In this document: positions 2,818 through 60,293 of the stretch, piece by piece
How positions within the stretch are numbered: position 1 is the first letter of the stretch
How the letters are laid out: the number at the start of each line of letters is the position of its first letter
Assembly (NCBI GenBank): GCA_019454835.1
Contig: JACFNP010000008.1
Location: 3,778 to 67,777, forward strand
Direction of reading: 5' to 3'
DNA length: 64,000 nt
DNA from: Rubellimicrobium sp.
GTDB taxonomy: Bacteria; Pseudomonadota; Alphaproteobacteria; Rhodobacterales; Rhodobacteraceae
Notes under the pieces: generated by a model
Database searches by the model: none
Seen by the model: only the letters and a program-made list of their open reading frames with translations
What the model was told of the DNA's origin: nothing
Program-made: the position numbers and the translations under genes

Positions 2818-3246
<429 letters not shown>

Positions 3247-3247
3247 G

Positions 3248-3425
3248 AGGGCAATCGGGCGAACGGCTCTGCGCGGGTTGGCAGGGCGTCCCTGCTCGCG
3301 AAATCCGTGATTGCGAGAAGCCGAAGGCGACGAAGCAACCTCGATGTTGTGCGCGAGCGGTCGAGGTTGCTTCGGCTTCGCCTCGCAATGACGAAAATAC
3401 GCCGTGCGCCCGATTGCCGTGGGCA
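3248..3425 (-). mobile_element. full-length MITE-like form around copy 3, inserted at the glnB stop codon
   Basis: Outer inverted arms GGCAATCGGGCGAACGGC (3250-3267) and GCCGTGCGCCCGATTGCC (3401-3418) match 17/18. A 10-bp direct repeat CTCTGAGAGG lies at 3241-3250 and 3426-3435; the right one is offset by 7 nt. Confidence 0.55.
3307..3392 (-). repeat. element copy 3 (A loop, R)
   Basis: GTGATTGCGAG...CCTCGCAATGAC, 60 nt downstream of the glnB stop. Confidence 0.9.
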
Positions 3426-3559
3426 CTCTGAGAGGCGCACAGAGAGGCGCACCAGAGAAACACTCCGGGGCTGCCGCCACAGGATTTCCGCAATTCCTCC
3501 CCTGTCATGCCGCGATCAACAGTCTGTTTCTGATCGTGAGCCAATAACAGGAGAGCGAA

Positions 3560-6919: not shown

Positions 6920-6974
6920 GCGTCAGGCGTCGCGGGGGCCGCCGCTCGGGGTGATCGGGTGCGCGGCATGTTCC

Positions 6975-7060
6975 GTCATTGCGAGGAGGCAAAGCCGACG
7001 AAGCAACCCCGATGTCGTGTGTAAGCAGTCGGGGTTGCTTCGGCTTCGCCTCGCAATGAC
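6975..7060 (-). repeat. element copy 5 (A loop, R)
   Basis: Full termini; loop CGATGTCGTGTGTAAGCAGTCG. Confidence 0.9.
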
Positions 7061-7074
7061 GGAGGGGAGATGTC

Positions 7075-7164
7075 GTCATTGCGAGGAGCCGCAGGCGACG
7101 CGGCAATCCATGGGCCGGGCGCGGCGCCCGGCATGGGTTGCTTCGGCTTCACCTCGCGGGTGAC
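7075..7164 (-). repeat. element copy 6 (B loop, R-type arms)
   Basis: The A loop is replaced by CAATCCATGGGCCGGGCGCGGCGCCCGGCATGGGTTG. Right terminus variant CTCGCGGGTGAC. Confidence 0.9.
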
Positions 7165-7260
7165 GGAATATGCCCGATCGCCCCGCGCCACGCTTGCCAC
7201 ACTTGAGCGCATCAGTCAGGAAATGTAAGCCCGCCCGCAACCCGCCCGGTCGCGGGTCGT

Positions 7261-11605: not shown

Positions 11606-12012
11606 CCACGGACGAGTCACCATCGGCGCGCATCGACGCCCGGCTGGCCGGTCTTGCAGACTGGCGCGGTGCGGCCCTGTCACGGATGCGCGACCTGATC
11701 CGCGAGGCCGATCCGGCGGTGGTCGAGACCGTCAAATGGGTGAAGCCCTCGAACCCCCATGGGGTGCCGGTCTGGGAACATGCCGGGATCATCTGCACCG
11801 GCGAGATCTACAAGGGCTACGTCAAGCTGACCTTCGCACGCGGCGCAGCGCTGGACGACCCGGCGGGGCTGTTCAACGCAGGCTTCGGCGGCGGCACCCG
11901 CCGGGCCATCGACATCCGCGAGGGCGAGACCCCCGACGCCGCCGCGTTCCGGGCGCTGGTGCAGGCAGCGGTCCGCCTGAACGAGGCGCGGCAGAAGCCC
12001 GCCCGGACCTGA
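11602..12012 (+). CDS. DUF1801 (YdhG-like) domain protein
   Basis: 136 aa, MTTDESPSARIDARL...VKWVKPSNPHGVPVW. ATGA overlap with the FTR1 stop. Confidence 0.55.
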   Translation: MTTDESPSARIDARLAGLADWRGAALSRMRDLIREADPAVVETVKWVKPSNPHGVPVWEHAGIICTGEIYKGYVKLTFARGAALDDPAGLFNAGFGGGTRRAIDIREGETPDAAAFRALVQAAVRLNEARQKPART

Positions 12013-12036
12013 CGACCCCCGCCCTGCAAGGCCCCC

Positions 12037-12123
12037 GTCATTGCGAGGAGGCGCAGCCGACGAAGCAACCCCGATGTCGTATGTGAGCGGTCGGGGTTGC
12101 TTCGGCTTGCGCCTCGCAATGAC
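12037..12123 (-). repeat. element copy 7 (A loop, R)
   Basis: Full termini; lies between the convergent DUF1801 and emrB genes. Confidence 0.9.
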
Positions 12124-12170
12124 GGGATTTGCTCGCGGGTGGCGGGGTTTGCTCGCGGGTGACGGGATTT
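12124..12170. repeat. tandem 20-bp units carrying solo variant termini
   Basis: GGGATTTGCTCGCGGGTGGC / GGGGTTTGCTCGCGGGTGAC / GGGATTT. Each unit contains the CTCGCGGGTGAC-type terminus. Confidence 0.7.
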
Positions 12171-12200
12171 CCGGGCGGTGGTGCCGCGCGCGCCCCGGCG

Positions 12201-19925: not shown

Positions 19926-20966
19926 ATGAAGACATCCATTAAGGCATCCCTCAAGACGGGCCTGCTTGCGGCAGCCTGCACGATGGCGGGCACGCTGGCG
20001 CTGACCGCGCAGGAGGCCGCGTTCGACAACCCCGGCCCCGAAGCCTATGCCAACGCCCTCGAGGGGCGGCGCGTGGTGCTGATCCCGATGACCATGGGCT
20101 TCGACCTTGCCCAGGGCTGGAACTACTTCATCGGCGAGGAAGTGCGCCAGTTCGGCGGCATCTGGGAAACCCGCGACCCGAACTGGAGCGTCGATGCCGG
20201 GGCGCAGGCGATCACCGACCTCATCGCCTCGGCGGACAAGCCCGATGTCATCATCGTGCAGTCGCCCGACCTCAATTCCTATTCGCGGCTTTACCGGCGC
20301 GCGCAGGAGGCGGGGATTTTCGTCATCCAGCTCGACAACCCGTCGAACTATGCGTCCGACGTGTTCGCCGGGTCCAACTGGCAGACCCTGGGCGAACTGG
20401 AGACCCAGGCCGTCATCGACCATTGCGGCGAGGATTCGTCGAAGAAGATCGGCGTCATCCAGGGCGACCAGGTGAATTCGTCCTCGGTCGACCAGTGGGC
20501 GGGCGTGCAGGCGGTGCTCGAACGCAACCCCGGCTGGACGGTCGCGGGCACCGGCGATTCCAACTGGGATCCGACCACCGCGCGCAACGTGGCCGCGACG
20601 ATCCTGCAACAGAACCCCGACATCTGCGGCATCGTCGATTTCTGGGACGCGACCGCCCAGGGCACCGCCGCCGCCGTGCGTGACGCGGGCCTGCAGGACC
20701 AGGTGTTCATCGCCACCACCGGCTCGGGCGAGACCATCGACTGCAAGCTGCTTGAAAACGGCACCTTCGGCGCCGTGGTGATGAGCGAGCTGCCCCGCCA
20801 GTCGCAGGATACCGTGGCCGCGATCAAGCTGCTCTTGCAAAGCGGCGCGGCGCCGGGCGATGCGTCGATGTATCTCTACACCGCCGAGCGGGCGCGCACC
20901 GCCGCCGACCTGACGCCCACGACCTGCTGGGACCAGGCCGCCATCGAGGCCCGCGCGGCCGACTGA
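19926..20966 (+). CDS. periplasmic sugar-type (type I PBP) substrate-binding protein
   Basis: 346 aa with signal peptide and a GAGGAGGAG RBS upstream. Confidence 0.8.
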   Translation: MKTSIKASLKTGLLAAACTMAGTLALTAQEAAFDNPGPEAYANALEGRRVVLIPMTMGFDLAQGWNYFIGEEVRQFGGIWETRDPNWSVDAGAQAITDLIASADKPDVIIVQSPDLNSYSRLYRRAQEAGIFVIQLDNPSNYASDVFAGSNWQTLGELETQAVIDHCGEDSSKKIGVIQGDQVNSSSVDQWAGVQAVLERNPGWTVAGTGDSNWDPTTARNVAATILQQNPDICGIVDFWDATAQGTAAAVRDAGLQDQVFIATTGSGETIDCKLLENGTFGAVVMSELPRQSQDTVAAIKLLLQSGAAPGDASMYLYTAERARTAADLTPTTCWDQAAIEARAAD

Positions 20967-31067: not shown

Positions 31068-31111
31068 CGCGCTATCCGGGGACTGTCAGGGGGAGCGGGC
31101 GGCATATTTTC

Positions 31112-31197
31112 GTCATTGCGAGGCGCAGCCGAAGCAACCTCGACCGCTCACACACAGCATCGGGGTTGCTTCGTCGGCTGCAGCTCCTCGCAATGAC
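31112..31197 (+). repeat. element copy 9 (A loop, F)
   Basis: Full termini; loop CGACCGCTCACACACAGCATCG. Confidence 0.9.
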
Positions 31198-31214
31198 GGT
31201 GCTCATATCCCTCC

Positions 31215-31304
31215 GTCATTGCGAGGAGCCGCAGGCGACGCGGCAATCCACAAGGCCGGGCGTTGCACCCGGCATGGGTTGCTTCGGCTTCGCCTCGCAA
31301 CGAC
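31215..31304 (-). repeat. element copy 10 (B loop, R-type arms)
   Basis: CAATCCACAAGGCCGGGCGTTGCACCCGGCATGGGTTG loop; right terminus CTCGCAACGAC. Confidence 0.9.
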
Positions 31305-31343
31305 GGGGTTCACACCGCCGCGCGATTTACCACGATACACGTC

Positions 31344-31575: not shown

Positions 31576-31724
31576 ATGCCGCGACTGGTCGTCCTGCACG
31601 GTGCAGAGGCAGACCTCGTCGAAATCGGCATCTACATCGCCCGCGACAACCCAACACGCGCATCGTCCTTCATCGACGAGATCGAGGCGCGGATGGCCGA
31701 AATCGCGCGCCGCCCGCACCCCCC
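31576..31724 (+). pseudogene. parE: ParE/RelE-family toxin, N-terminal ~50 codons only, truncated by repeat copy at 31725
   Basis: MPRLVVLHGAEADLVEIGIYIARDNPTRASSFIDEIEARMAEIARRPH then runs straight into GTCATTGCGAGG. Starts 1 nt after the parD stop. Confidence 0.5.
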
Positions 31725-31810: not shown

Positions 31811-31870
31811 GGGGGGTCCGGGGGGCAGTGCCTTGGCCCGCGCAGCCGCAGGTCGCCCGGTTGTCCCGGC

Positions 31871-34897: not shown

Positions 34898-34907
34898 TGG
34901 GGGATTC

Positions 34908-34995
34908 GTCATTGCGAACGAAGTGAAGCAATCCATGCCGGGCGCAGCGCCCGGCCCTGTGGATTGCCGCGTCGCCTTCGGCTCCTCGCAATGAC
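34908..34995 (+). repeat. element copy 13 (B loop, F-type arms)
   Basis: Its reverse complement aligns with copies 6 and 10. Confidence 0.9.
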
Positions 34996-35008
34996 GAGAT
35001 GAGCAACC

Positions 35009-39311: not shown

Positions 39312-40841
<1,530 letters not shown>

Positions 40842-40913
40842 GCCGCATCTCCCCTGCGCCCCGCACGATTGTGCATCATTCACCGGGCAGGCCAAGCGGG
40901 AAACCCGAAATGC

Positions 40914-41054
40914 AGGGCGAACGGGTGAACCGCATGTTCCGTCATTGCGAGGCGAAGCCGAAGCAACCCCGACCGCTTGCGCACAACATCGGGGTTGCTT
41001 CGTCGGCTGCGCCGCCTCGCAATGACGGCATATGCCGCGCGCCCGGTTGCCCTG
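40914..41054 (+). mobile_element. full-length MITE-like form of the element (core + outer inverted arms) with target-site-duplication-like flanks
   Basis: Outer arms AGGGCGAACGGGTGAACCGCATGTTCC and GGCATATGCCGCGCGCCCGGTTGCCCTG form an imperfect inverted repeat (about 19/27 by hand). They are flanked flush by the exact 11-bp direct repeat ACCCGAAATGC at 40903-40913 and 41055-41065. Confidence 0.7.
40941..41026 (+). repeat. element copy 15 core (A loop, F)
   Basis: Full termini; sits inside the longer element 40914-41054. Confidence 0.9.
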
Positions 41055-41083
41055 ACCCGAAATGCCGCGCGACCCGGCGGCCC

Positions 41084-42118
41084 CTACCCGCGCGGGATGG
41101 CCAGTTCGGTTGCCGGGTCGAACAGGTGGACCTTGTCCACCGGCGCTGCGGCACGGACCGTCTGCCCGGCCTCGAAACGGTCGTGGGCGCCTGCGCTGGC
41201 GGTCACCGGCACCGGCCCGGCCATGAAATGCACCAGCGTCTCGGGGCCGAGCGGCTCCATCGCCGTCACCTGCCCTTCCAGCCGCAGCCCGGTGCCGTCG
41301 CCGCCGACGATCAGGTCGTGCGGGCGCACCCCGGCCAGCACCCGGCCCGCGCCCTGTGCGGGGACATAGGCGCCGCCCTCGGCCTGCGCGGCAAGGATGT
41401 TCATCGAGGGCGTGCCGATGAAGCGGGCGGTGAACACGTCGCCGGGGTGGTCGTAGATTTCCATCGGCGTCGCCGCCTGAAGGATGCGGCCGTCCTTCAT
41501 CACCACGATGCGGTCGGCCATGGTCATGGCCTCGACCTGATCGTGGGTGACATAGGCGATGGTGGTGCCAAGCCGCGCGTGCAATGCCTTGATTTCAATA
41601 CGCATCTGGGCGCGCAACTGGGCATCGAGGTTGGACAGGGGTTCGTCGAACAGGAACGCCGCCGGGCTGCGCACCATGGCGCGACCGATGGCGACCCGCT
41701 GCCTCTGCCCGCCCGACAGCGCCGAAGGCCGCCGGTCCAGCAGCGGCGTCAGGCCAAGGATCGCGGCGGCGTCCTCGACCTGTTTCCTCTTTTCGGCCTT
41801 CGACAACCTCGCGGTATAAAGGCCGAAGGCGATGTTCTGGCGCACCGTAAGGTGCGGATAGATCGCGTAGTTCTGGAACACCATGGCGATGTCGCGCGCC
41901 TTGGGATCAAGCTCGTTCACCACCCGCCCGCCGATGCGGATTTCGCCCGAGGTCACTTCGTCCAGCCCGGCCAGCATCCGCAATGTGGTCGATTTCCCGC
42001 AGCCCGAGGGGCCGACGAACACGACGAATTCGCCATCGGCAATGTCGAGGTCGATGCCGTGGATCACGGTGTTCCTGCCGTAGCTTTTCACCAGCTTGCG
42101 AAGTTCGATCTGCGCCAT
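41084..42118 (-). CDS. sugar/glycerol-3-P type ABC transporter ATP-binding protein (UgpC/MalK-like)
   Basis: Walker [10 protein letters not shown], signature [15 protein letters not shown]-terminal TOBE-like region. Confidence 0.85.
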
Positions 42119-55583: not shown

Positions 55584-55700
55584 GCGCCCAGACTAGCGGT
55601 TCGCGCCGGGGCGCGGAAGGGGCTGTTCTGCCATTGTTCGCATCAGGGTCAAACTTCGTTAACCTGTGGTGCCGCGCGTCGTGCCGGGGTGAGCGGGTTC

Positions 55701-55787
55701 GTCATTGCGAGCCGCAAGGCGAAGCAACCCCGACCGCTCGCACGCGACATCGCGGTTTCTTCGTCGCCTGCGCCGCCTCGCAATGAA
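55701..55787 (+). repeat. element copy 19 (A loop, F, degenerate right terminus CAATGAA)
   Basis: Nested within a perfect 16-bp outer inverted repeat (55685-55700 / 55788-55803). Confidence 0.85.
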
Positions 55788-55890
55788 GAACCCGCTCACC
55801 CCGCGCATCGTGCAAGACCATTGCCCCCGGCGCCAATCGCCCTATCTTCGCTGCATCTGCACGATACCGTCTTGCCCGGAAAGGCACCCG

Positions 55891-58669: not shown

Positions 58670-58785
58670 GGGATATGCCGCCCGCCCGATCACCCCGCCC
58701 CGCCACCGTGCCCCTTGAAACCGGCGCCGCGCTCGTCGACAGTTGTGCCAGCCTGCCGCCGCATCACCACAACGGACGGACCATC

Positions 58786-59523
58786 ATGCCGATCTACAAG
58801 GTCAGACCGCACGCCGAATCCTACGGCCACGACATCGGCATCCTGCTGATCGACTGCCGGACACCCTTCATCCCCGGCGATGTCGGCAACGCCACCTCCT
58901 ACCGCTATCCGGTCCTTTACCGGACGGTTCCCGACGTGACGCTCGACCGGCTCATCAACCGGGGCGACCTGTCGCTGACCGGGAACGTGCTGGCCACGGC
59001 GCGCGGACTGGAGGCCGTCGGGGTCCGCGCCATCACCAGCGACTGTGGCTACATGCTGCATTTCCAGAAGCAGGTCGCGGCGGCGGTGTCGATTCCGGTC
59101 ATGCTCTCGCCGCTGCTGCAACTGCCCTTCGTCGAATCCCTGCTGGGCGATGATGCGGCCATCGGGATCATCTGCGCCAACCGGCAGCGCCTGACGCCGG
59201 ACCTGCTGGCCATCGCGCTGCCGAACCCGCGCCTGCCGGTCCATGTCGCCGGGCTGGAAACCTGCCCGAACTTTCGCGGGCCGATCCTCGACGAAACCGA
59301 CACGCTCGACAGCGACGCCATCGAGGCCGAGGTCGTCGCCGCCGCAAGCCAACTGTGCGACGCCCACCCCGCCATCGGCGCCATCGTCATGGAATGCTCG
59401 AACCTGCCGCCCTACGCCCATGCGGTGCAGGCCGCGACCGGCAGGCCGGTGTTCGACTTCCTGACCATGATCGACCACGTCCGCGCCGCGACACGGCGCA
59501 GGCGCTATGCGGGGCATTACTGA
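58786..59523 (+). CDS. Asp/Glu/hydantoin-racemase-like family protein
   Basis: 245 aa from MPIYKVRPH. Two Cys-containing half-site motifs (ITSDCGYM, VMECSNLPPY) resemble this fold. Confidence 0.5.
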   Translation: MPIYKVRPHAESYGHDIGILLIDCRTPFIPGDVGNATSYRYPVLYRTVPDVTLDRLINRGDLSLTGNVLATARGLEAVGVRAITSDCGYMLHFQKQVAAAVSIPVMLSPLLQLPFVESLLGDDAAIGIICANRQRLTPDLLAIALPNPRLPVHVAGLETCPNFRGPILDETDTLDSDAIEAEVVAAASQLCDAHPAIGAIVMECSNLPPYAHAVQAATGRPVFDFLTMIDHVRAATRRRRYAGHY

Positions 59524-59537
59524 AGCCCGCAAATTCC

Positions 59538-59623
59538 GTCATTGCGAGGCGCAAGCCGAAGCAACCCCGACCACTCACATACAACATCGGGGTTGCTTCG
59601 TCGGCTTCGCCTCCTCGCAATGA
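59538..59623 (+). repeat. element copy 22 (A loop, F)
   Basis: Full termini. Confidence 0.9.
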
Positions 59624-59634
59624 CGGCAGTTCCC

Positions 59635-59721
59635 GTCATTGCGAGGCGGAGCCGAAGCAACCTCGACCGCTCGCGCAAAGCCTTCGGGGTTGCCGCGTCG
59701 GCTTCGGCTCCTCGCAATGAC
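59635..59721 (+). repeat. element copy 23 (A-like loop, F, B-type right arm)
   Basis: Full termini. Confidence 0.9.
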
Positions 59722-59774
59722 GGGATATGCCGCGCGCCCCGCCACACCACCTTGCGCGACGCGGCGCAGGTGTT

Positions 59775-60293
59775 ATGCCTGAGGCCATGCAACGGACTCG
59801 GGCCATAGCGGCCATTGCCAACCGCGACGGGCTGGATTCGCAGGCCCTTCTCGAAGCCGCCGCCGAAGGCTGGCATGCGGCGGGGCTGGTCGTGGCGGGG
59901 CTTGTGGCCGAAAACAACCTGACCGACGGCGAATGCAGCGCTTCCTTCCTGCGCGACATCACCTCAGGGCGGCGGTTCTCGATCCAGCTTGACGCCGCGC
60001 CCGAAGGCACCACCTGCCACCTCGACGCCGCCGGGCTGGACGTGGCCTGCGCCGACCTGCTGCCGCGCCTTGCGGGCGCCGATGTCGTGATCCTCAGCAA
60101 GTTCGGCAAGACCGAGGCCGCAGGCGGCGGGCTGCGCGCCGCCTTCGCGGGCGCCGTCGCCTCGGGCGTGCCGCTGCTGACGACGGTATCGCCCAAGCAT
60201 GTCGAGGCATGGGCGGCCTTCGCGCAGGGCACGACCTGGCTGGAACCCGACCTGCCGTCGATCCTGCGCTGGCGCGACAGCGCCACGGCCTGA
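59775..60293 (+). CDS. DUF2478 (THEP1-like NTPase-related) protein
   Basis: VVILSKFGKTEAAGGGLR...GVPLLTTV pattern. Start uncertain (59775 or 59787). Confidence 0.5.
   Translation: MPEAMQRTRAIAAIANRDGLDSQALLEAAAEGWHAAGLVVAGLVAENNLTDGECSASFLRDITSGRRFSIQLDAAPEGTTCHLDAAGLDVACADLLPRLAGADVVILSKFGKTEAAGGGLRAAFAGAVASGVPLLTTVSPKHVEAWAAFAQGTTWLEPDLPSILRWRDSATA

Follow-up and report, generated by a model that had tools for sequence, protein, structure and literature searches.

The intergenic DNA at positions 40913-41054 of the stretch analysed here (a window of 64 kb with a G+C content of 69.9%) is, judged by its sequence, a non-coding miniature transposon of 142 bp, with ends of the ISAs1 type and a 10-bp target duplication. 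The evidence for this assignment consists of the structure of the unit itself, a comparison of its outer arms with the ends of transposase-bearing insertion sequences (ISs), the register of the direct repeats that flank this and other armed units in the window, and the separate distribution of the hairpin that forms its interior.

The unit is located between two genes encoded on the minus strand, with the gene for an ABC-transporter ATPase (41084..42118; ABC_tran and TOBE_2 domains) upstream of the insertion and pccB, encoding the propionyl-CoA carboxylase beta chain (39312..40841; Pfam Carboxyl_trans), downstream of it. The local order is gggaa ACCCGAAATGC / AGGGCGAACGGGTGAACCGCATGTTC / core 40940-41027 / GCATATGCCGCGCGCCCGGTTGCCCTG / ACCCGAAATGC cgcgcg, such that an 88-bp hairpin core and its 26-27-bp inverted arms are bracketed by two copies of an 11-mer, ACCCGAAATGC, at 40903-40913 and 41055-41065. 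A window-wide exact search found only these two copies of the 11-mer in the 64 kb, and the 141 bp from 40914 to 41054 are flush with it on either side. The left arm (40913..40939, plus strand), which was matched by both a terminal inverted repeat (TIR) pattern and an HMM, comprises the ISAs1-type TIR CAGGGCGAACGGGTGAAC followed by the inner arm CGCATGTTC; the core (40940..41027, plus strand) runs CGTCATTGCGAGG...CCTCGCAATGACG and is one of the 23 cores in the window; and the right arm (41028..41054, minus strand) has the minus-strand reading CAGGGCAACCGGGCGCGCGGCATATGC, again a TIR plus an inner arm. By eye, the two arms (AGGGCGAACGGGTGAACCGCATGTTC on the left and GCATATGCCGCGCGCCCGGTTGCCCTG on the right) are complementary at approximately 19 of 27 positions, and the whole unit folds into a single long hairpin (z = -6.3). 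We observed no coding capacity in this unit. A promoter and terminator scan of 40600-41300 gave no matches, curated RNA families (Rfam 15, gathering score) gave no covariance-model matches across the whole window, and the products of the two flanking genes had no exact database record.

ISAs1-family insertion sequences have CAGGG ends and generate duplications of 8-10 bp, and this provided a lead on the identity of the arms. We gathered ISAs1 elements by a tblastn search of plasmids with the E. coli ISAs1-like transposase YhhI, took the alphaproteobacterial elements and computed their ends. ISAzs15 of Azospirillum B510 (1263 bp, two copies) has the TIR CAGGGCAATCGCTTGA and the duplications GCCGGTCACG and ACGTTCCTGA; the Tistrella mobilis pTM2 element (1241 bp) has CAGGGCAATCGGGTGAAACAG as its left inverted repeat (IRL), CAGGGGAATCGGGTGAAAG as its right inverted repeat (IRR) and the duplication TATGCAGGGG; an element of Hoeflea sp. 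IMCC20628 has the TIR CAG[T/G]G[C/G]AATCG[G/A]GTGAA and the duplication GAGGTGGCTT; and ISOan1 of Octadecabacter has the TIR CA[A/G]GG[C/G]AATCGCATGA and a target duplication matching at 9/10 positions. Metagenome copies of the Tistrella-type element (IRL CAGGGCAATCGGGTGAACGAG) have 10/10 duplications at three sites and an 8-bp duplication at one. The target duplications of these autonomous ISAs1 copies are therefore mostly of 10 bp, including six exact 10/10 cases, with one of 8 bp. The Tistrella-type query transposase and its homologues carry PF13808 and PF01609, and these homologues are very common in metagenomes. Relatives at 79-100% identity were observed in many metagenome contigs, including genome bins (MAGs) labelled as Nitrospinae and Verrucomicrobiota, and in several of the contigs (L224-L227) the left and right flanks did not match, which would be expected of chimeric assemblies or of copies that had recombined. 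Similar features have been published for another member of the ISAs1 family, ISArsp11, with an IR of CAGGGCTGATGCAAAGTCG (CAGGGCTGATGC...) and a direct repeat of 10 bp (PMC6305408).

Direct comparison of the ends of the 40913 unit, CAGGGCGAACGGGTGAAC and CAGGGCAACCGGGCGCGC, showed a match to CAGGGCAATCGGGTGAAC, which is the TIR found in ISAs1 elements that carry a transposase gene, from Tistrella, Azospirillum, Hoeflea and metagenomes. Four arms in the window, namely CAGGGCGAACGGGTGAACC (left, 40913), CAGGGCAACCGGGCGCGCG (right, 41054, reverse complement), GAGGGCAATCGGGCGAACG (left, 3247) and CACGGCAATCGGGCGCACG (right, 3421, reverse complement), are identical to the Tistrella IRL at 13-16 of 19 positions, with 16/19 for the left TIR at 40913 and 13/19 for the right TIR at 41054. 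Only 11/19 positions of the TIR at 55685 agree with the external TIR, and pairing between the two TIRs within one element is imperfect. An a priori 17-mer pattern derived from the Tistrella IRL, allowing no more than three mismatches, had four matches in the window compared with 0.22 expected. Three of these four sit exactly at the boundaries of armed units (40913, 3247 and 3421), with two mismatches for the match at 40913-40929; the fourth, at 20460, is inside a coding region and was taken as a chance match. An HMM of the arms detected the left arm of the 40913 unit with E=8e-5 and the right arm, its best match, with E=3e-5, and nearly all matches to this profile adjoin cores. The consensus of the outer ~18 nt on each side is CAGGGCAAYCGGGYGAAC. 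The window units thus have the two features expected of the ISAs1 family, namely a 5'-CAGGG end with similarity to the TIRs and a duplication, here of 10 bp, within the range of 8-10 bp. On the basis of this comparison, we assign the outer arms of the 40913 unit to the ISAs1 insertion-sequence family, as its terminal inverted repeats.

Assignment of the arms defines where the duplication ends. An initial annotation of this DNA described an 11-bp target-site duplication. The 11-mer is exact at both boundaries, but the C at 40913 already belongs to the TIR (CAGGG), as its first base, and hence the duplication is of 10 bp, not 11, and the unit is of 142 bp (40913-41054). When the element is taken to start at CAGGG, the left copy of the duplication, ACCCGAAATG, occupies 40903-40912, 62 nt upstream of the pccB start codon, and is identical at 10/10 positions to the right copy at 41055-41064, 19 nt downstream of the ABC-ATPase stop codon. 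The same annotation considered a repeat of this type very unlikely to arise by chance, and whether this holds depends on how the test is posed. In a window of 70% G+C, an exact repeat of at least 11 nt is found anywhere in two 60-nt flanks at 1.3% of random positions, 100-nt flanks give a score of at least 12 at 3.3% of random positions, and scores of 10 or more arise at 0.5% of positions when two 25-nt windows are aligned locally. As 14 repeat clusters had been inspected, a chance of 1.3% means that the 11-mer on its own goes only as far as being suggestive. A properly posed test requires boundaries that are set independently, for which we used the external TIR pattern. In this register, the background chance per site is 3e-5 for 10/10 and 3.9e-4 for at least 9/10, and the observed 10-mers match at 10/10 positions for the unit at 40913, 9/10 for that at 3247 and 9/10 for that at 55685; the improbability claimed for the repeat is justified for these in-register comparisons. 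Three of the four units with both arms in the window therefore reach at least 9/10, such that a duplication of fixed length, flush with the TIRs, was directly observed at three sites and was absent from one two-core unit (5/10).

Duplications flanking other full-length copies had been named beforehand as the test of an outer-armed mobile unit with a target-site duplication. Their presence at 3247-3421 and 55685-55803, together with the similarity of the arms to ISAs1 TIRs, bears out this proposal. The second armed unit (3247-3421, 175 bp) contains a core at 3306-3393, has matches to the TIR pattern at 3247-3263 (+) and 3405-3421 (-), and is flanked by GGCGCTCTGA (3237-3246) and GGCACTCTGA (3422-3431). 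The left copy of this duplication holds the last codon and stop (CTC TGA) of a P-II nitrogen-regulatory gene (2827-3246), indicating that the insertion occurred exactly at the end of the gene and that the duplication kept the stop. In the third unit (55685-55803, 119 bp), the TIRs CGGGGTGAGCGGGTT and AACCCGCTCACCCCG directly abut the core, and the flanking 10-mers are CGCGTCGTGC (55675-55684) and CGCATCGTGC (55804-55813). The fourth (6947..7185) has cores 5 and 6 between its two arms and is the unit with no duplication. A further two-core armed unit at ~31087-31334 also has no duplication (1/10 for the 10-mers, read by eye), and thus the two-core armed units, at 5/10 and 1/10, differ from the single-core armed units at 9-10/10. 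These duplication-free two-core units may have arisen, for example, by recombination of copies from different sites.

These armed units have lengths of 119, 142, 175 and 239 bp, and the spacing between TIR and core varies from 0 nt (55685) to ~9 nt (40913) and, on one side of the 3247 unit, 38 extra nt. A mobile unit of about 140 bp, as had been suggested, is thus contradicted by the absence of any fixed length. In total, the 64 kb contain four units with both arms and approximately six that are partly armed, and arms were seen beside all of the copies for which they had been reported (3, 5+6, 21, 1, 2, 8, 9 and 23). One more armed copy was found in a metagenome contig (L110); its arms are the same and it is flanked by a 12-nt repeat, CGCCGGGCGGGG, which is 2 nt out of the TIR register unless two bases have been lost from the start of the left TIR. 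Window copy 11 and the L110 copy share a long-arm variant in which the 16-mer CGCCGCCCGCACCCCC abuts the core (window 31709-31723 and 31812-31866; L110 7662-7720) and the outer TIR module is located ~40 nt further out on one side.

The core hairpin has a wider distribution than this lineage and is itself a separate repeat. The 23 cores of the window fall into 14 clusters, many of them tandem with 8-31-nt spacers, and arms are absent or partial in more than half of these clusters. The hairpin termini are CGTCATTGCGAG / CTCGCAATGACG, giving a family with the form CGTCATTGCGAG...GAAGCAAYCC, and in an alignment of the 23 cores, those with arms did not group apart from those without. A scan of metagenome contigs for arm-core junctions detected the core hairpin in at least 120 unrelated contigs with G+C contents of 31-70% (loci L083-L202); arms were present in L110 only among the matches listed, and no flush direct repeat was found around the armless cores in 93 distinct units among these matches. 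Metagenome hairpins with the core termini often have the inner stem GAAGCAATCC/GGATTGCTTC, and the window's own cores have GAAGCAACCCC. There is also a second core subtype in the window, with the same termini and a different inner hairpin (GCAATCCATGGGCCGGGCG...CGCCCGGCATGGGTTGC), at 7074-7165, 31214-31305 and 34907-34996, always in tandem with a standard core. Searches of the literature with the core sequence or with peptide strings of spurious ORFs returned nothing relevant to the hairpin. The earlier view that the cores are merely the internal part of the element is not compatible with armless cores being common both in the window and in contigs that span 31-70% G+C. Given that armless cores are common and that the TIR-core spacing is variable, armed units are best seen as IS ends around one or two independent REP-like hairpins. 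The hairpin cores appear to have no transposase, duplication or known mechanism of their own.

Two other clusters are flanked by repeats of a different type. A 24-nt direct repeat (21/24 identical, p = 0.0016) flanks cores 22 and 23 at 59487-59510 and 59755-59778, on either side of the two-core cluster at 59537-59722, and has the sequence CGCGAC[A/G]CGGCGCAGG[C/T]G[C/T]TATGC followed, after a 9-nt indel, by CTGA[A/G]GCC. The left copy corresponds to the 3' end and stop codon of an ORF (58675-59523), and the repeat is far longer than 10 bp and outside the TIR register. Imperfect inverted arms of 35 nt (11986-12022 and 12155-12189), unrelated to the ISAs1 TIR, flank core 7 (12036-12124), which also has a 15/16 direct repeat, TTCCGGGCG[C/G]TGGTGC (with 11947-11962 as one site), for which p = 0.017 before multiple testing.

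We consider it probable that the 40913 unit is a non-coding MITE with ISAs1-type TIRs that is moved in trans by an ISAs1-family DDE transposase. Such a transposase (Pfam DDE_Tnp_1_assoc and DDE_Tnp_1), encoded elsewhere in the genome, would bind both TIRs and insert the unit into a target cut with an offset of 10 bp, and gap repair would then generate the 10-bp direct repeat ACCCGAAATG on either side. The insertion is presumably recent enough for the duplication to be intact. A tblastn search with the ISAzs15 transposase found no ISAs1 transposase in the window or in any fetched locus. Judged by pccB, the window belongs to the Rhodobacterales, with the nearest relatives of this gene being 84-85% identical, and the element was absent from all of the 82 pccB loci fetched from relatives; the gene order at this locus differs in Rubellimicrobium. 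The pre-insertion sequence is predicted to be ...GCGGGAAACCCGAAATGCCGCGCGACC..., and this empty-site string had no matches in metagenome contigs.

The alternative that survives best is possible, if on balance unlikely, and concerns the origin of the unit in a manner that is compatible with movement by an ISAs1 transposase. The mobile unit may consist of the ISAs1-type ends only, as a core-less mini-MITE, with one or more cores having entered the centre later by whatever process spreads the cores; the duplication would then be that of the arms, with the core as a later passenger. Such an origin would account for the widespread occurrence of armless, duplication-free cores, for variation among units in the sequence between TIR and core and for the presence of one or two cores per armed unit. 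However, there is no duplication around the core inside the arms, and searches of the window with the arm HMM and motif found no arms-only hairpin, with all matches away from cores being coding sequence. A BLAST search with the arms-only palindrome had as its sole match a chance G+C-rich hairpin on a Paracoccus plasmid, a plasmid BLAST of the whole unit returned only core-like matches in Novosphingobium, and a scan of viral contigs for the arm motif detected only a run of similar coding sequences that contain the motif by chance. A rather doubtful idea, which we put forward as speculation, is that the armed units arose as chimeras, by the capture between IS ends of a hairpin repeat that occurs over a very wide range of G+C contents.

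Part of the context of the 11-mer could instead be element-derived, if the 40913 copy had inserted into the relic of an older copy whose decayed ends are now at 41055-41086 on the right and 40888-40905 on the left. The right flank (ACCCGAAATGCCGCGCGACCCGGCGGCCCC) aligns to the right arm of the unit itself, scoring within the top 0.09% of the window, and the left flank (CAGGCCAAGCGGGAAACC) is identical to the TIR at 13/18 positions by eye, but the arm HMM matches neither flank, the left-side similarity has p = 0.07 and around the putative older copy itself there is no duplication (4/10 by eye), making this scenario improbable. A related candidate, in which the 11-mer would form the inner portion of another, nested pair of outer arms, was rejected; the right-flank similarity is real and the arm HMM does not support such arms.

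We regard as very improbable that the unit is a REP/REPIN-type palindrome moved by a RAYT (an IS200/IS605-like tyrosine transposase) or a product of replication slippage, with the flanking repeat arising as a by-product. The cores are dense, intergenic, hairpin-forming and often tandem, as are the BIMEs of E. coli, and they are widespread without duplications. The armed units, however, have both a target duplication and DDE-type TIRs, neither of which REP/RAYT systems or IS200/IS605 elements are known to have; the conserved GTAG head was not seen by eye in the core termini CGTCATTGCGAG; and a fixed 10-bp register is unexpected for slippage. Scarcely credible is the proposition that G+C-rich sequence produced the repeated 11-mer by chance, beside a hairpin stem that reaches into the flanks, with no transposition at all, since the frequency of loose 11-nt repeats and the number of clusters inspected, which would favour it, are outweighed by matches of 10/10, 9/10 and 9/10 in register at TIR-defined ends, at a chance of ~4e-4 each, and by the similarity of the arms to genuine IS ends.

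Comparison with known systems places these units close to the ISAs1 insertion sequences in their ends and apart from them in their interior. As in ISAzs15, ISArsp11, ISOan1 and the Tistrella and Hoeflea elements, the TIRs start with 5'-CAGGG and are identical at up to 16 of 18-19 nt (CAGGGCAATCGGGTGAAC), and the target duplication is of 10 bp (8 bp in one IS copy). In contrast to these insertion sequences, which are of 1.24-1.26 kb and encode a DDE_Tnp_1_assoc plus DDE_Tnp_1 transposase, the window units are of 119-239 bp and non-coding, with a hairpin repeat as their interior. REP, BIME and REPIN sequences resemble the window cores in being densely spaced palindromes between genes, often arranged in tandem with short spacers, and in having no target duplications, but differ from the armed unit, which has DDE-type TIRs and a 10-bp duplication; this duplication, and a GTAG not being seen in the core termini, place the unit outside the REP/REPIN-RAYT class. 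Features that define a MITE are present, with lengths (119-239 bp) below ~600 bp, no transposase gene, TIRs, a target duplication of fixed length flush with the TIRs at three units, and several copies at unrelated sites. A bacterial MITE with IS1182-type ends, MITEPye1, has been described in Paracoccus yeei (PMC11578231) and is likewise small, non-coding and intergenic, with IS-family-like TIRs, direct repeats and a long stem-loop (PMC11578231). The differences are that the ends of MITEPye1 derive from IS1182 and that the interior of the window unit is a separately distributed hairpin rather than an IS remnant. A review of prokaryotic MITEs mentions ISAs1 zero times (PMC10969869), and genome papers that report ISAs1 elements as well as MITEs draw no link between them. 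Overall, the 40913 unit is an ordinary kind of mobile element, a MITE in the usual sense from a family that is not known to have been described, and its novelty is modest.

Here we have settled the outer arms in this genome as IS ends. Under the proposed mechanism, some at least of these closely packed hairpins (23 cores in 64 kb) would lie in units that transpose by a standard cut-and-stagger mechanism. The combination of the TIR CAGGGCAAYCGGGYGAAC and a 10-bp duplication provides a rule for annotation, and an ISAs1-family transposase is predicted elsewhere in the genome. Insertions are located at gene boundaries, 19 nt after the ABC-ATPase stop, 62 nt before the pccB start and exactly at the P-II stop, and place a near-perfect hairpin of ~140 nt in transcripts, such that expression may be affected, as may be the case for the ABC-ATPase/pccB transcript. 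The element is also a neat case of a MITE for which the ends suffice to name the parent family. If IS ends have indeed captured the hairpins, these repeats would have been moved and amplified by hitch-hiking between DDE transposon ends, the armed units would represent the first described ISAs1-derived MITE family, and their structure would offer a clue to the spread of the CGTCATTGCGAG...GAAGCAAYCC hairpin.
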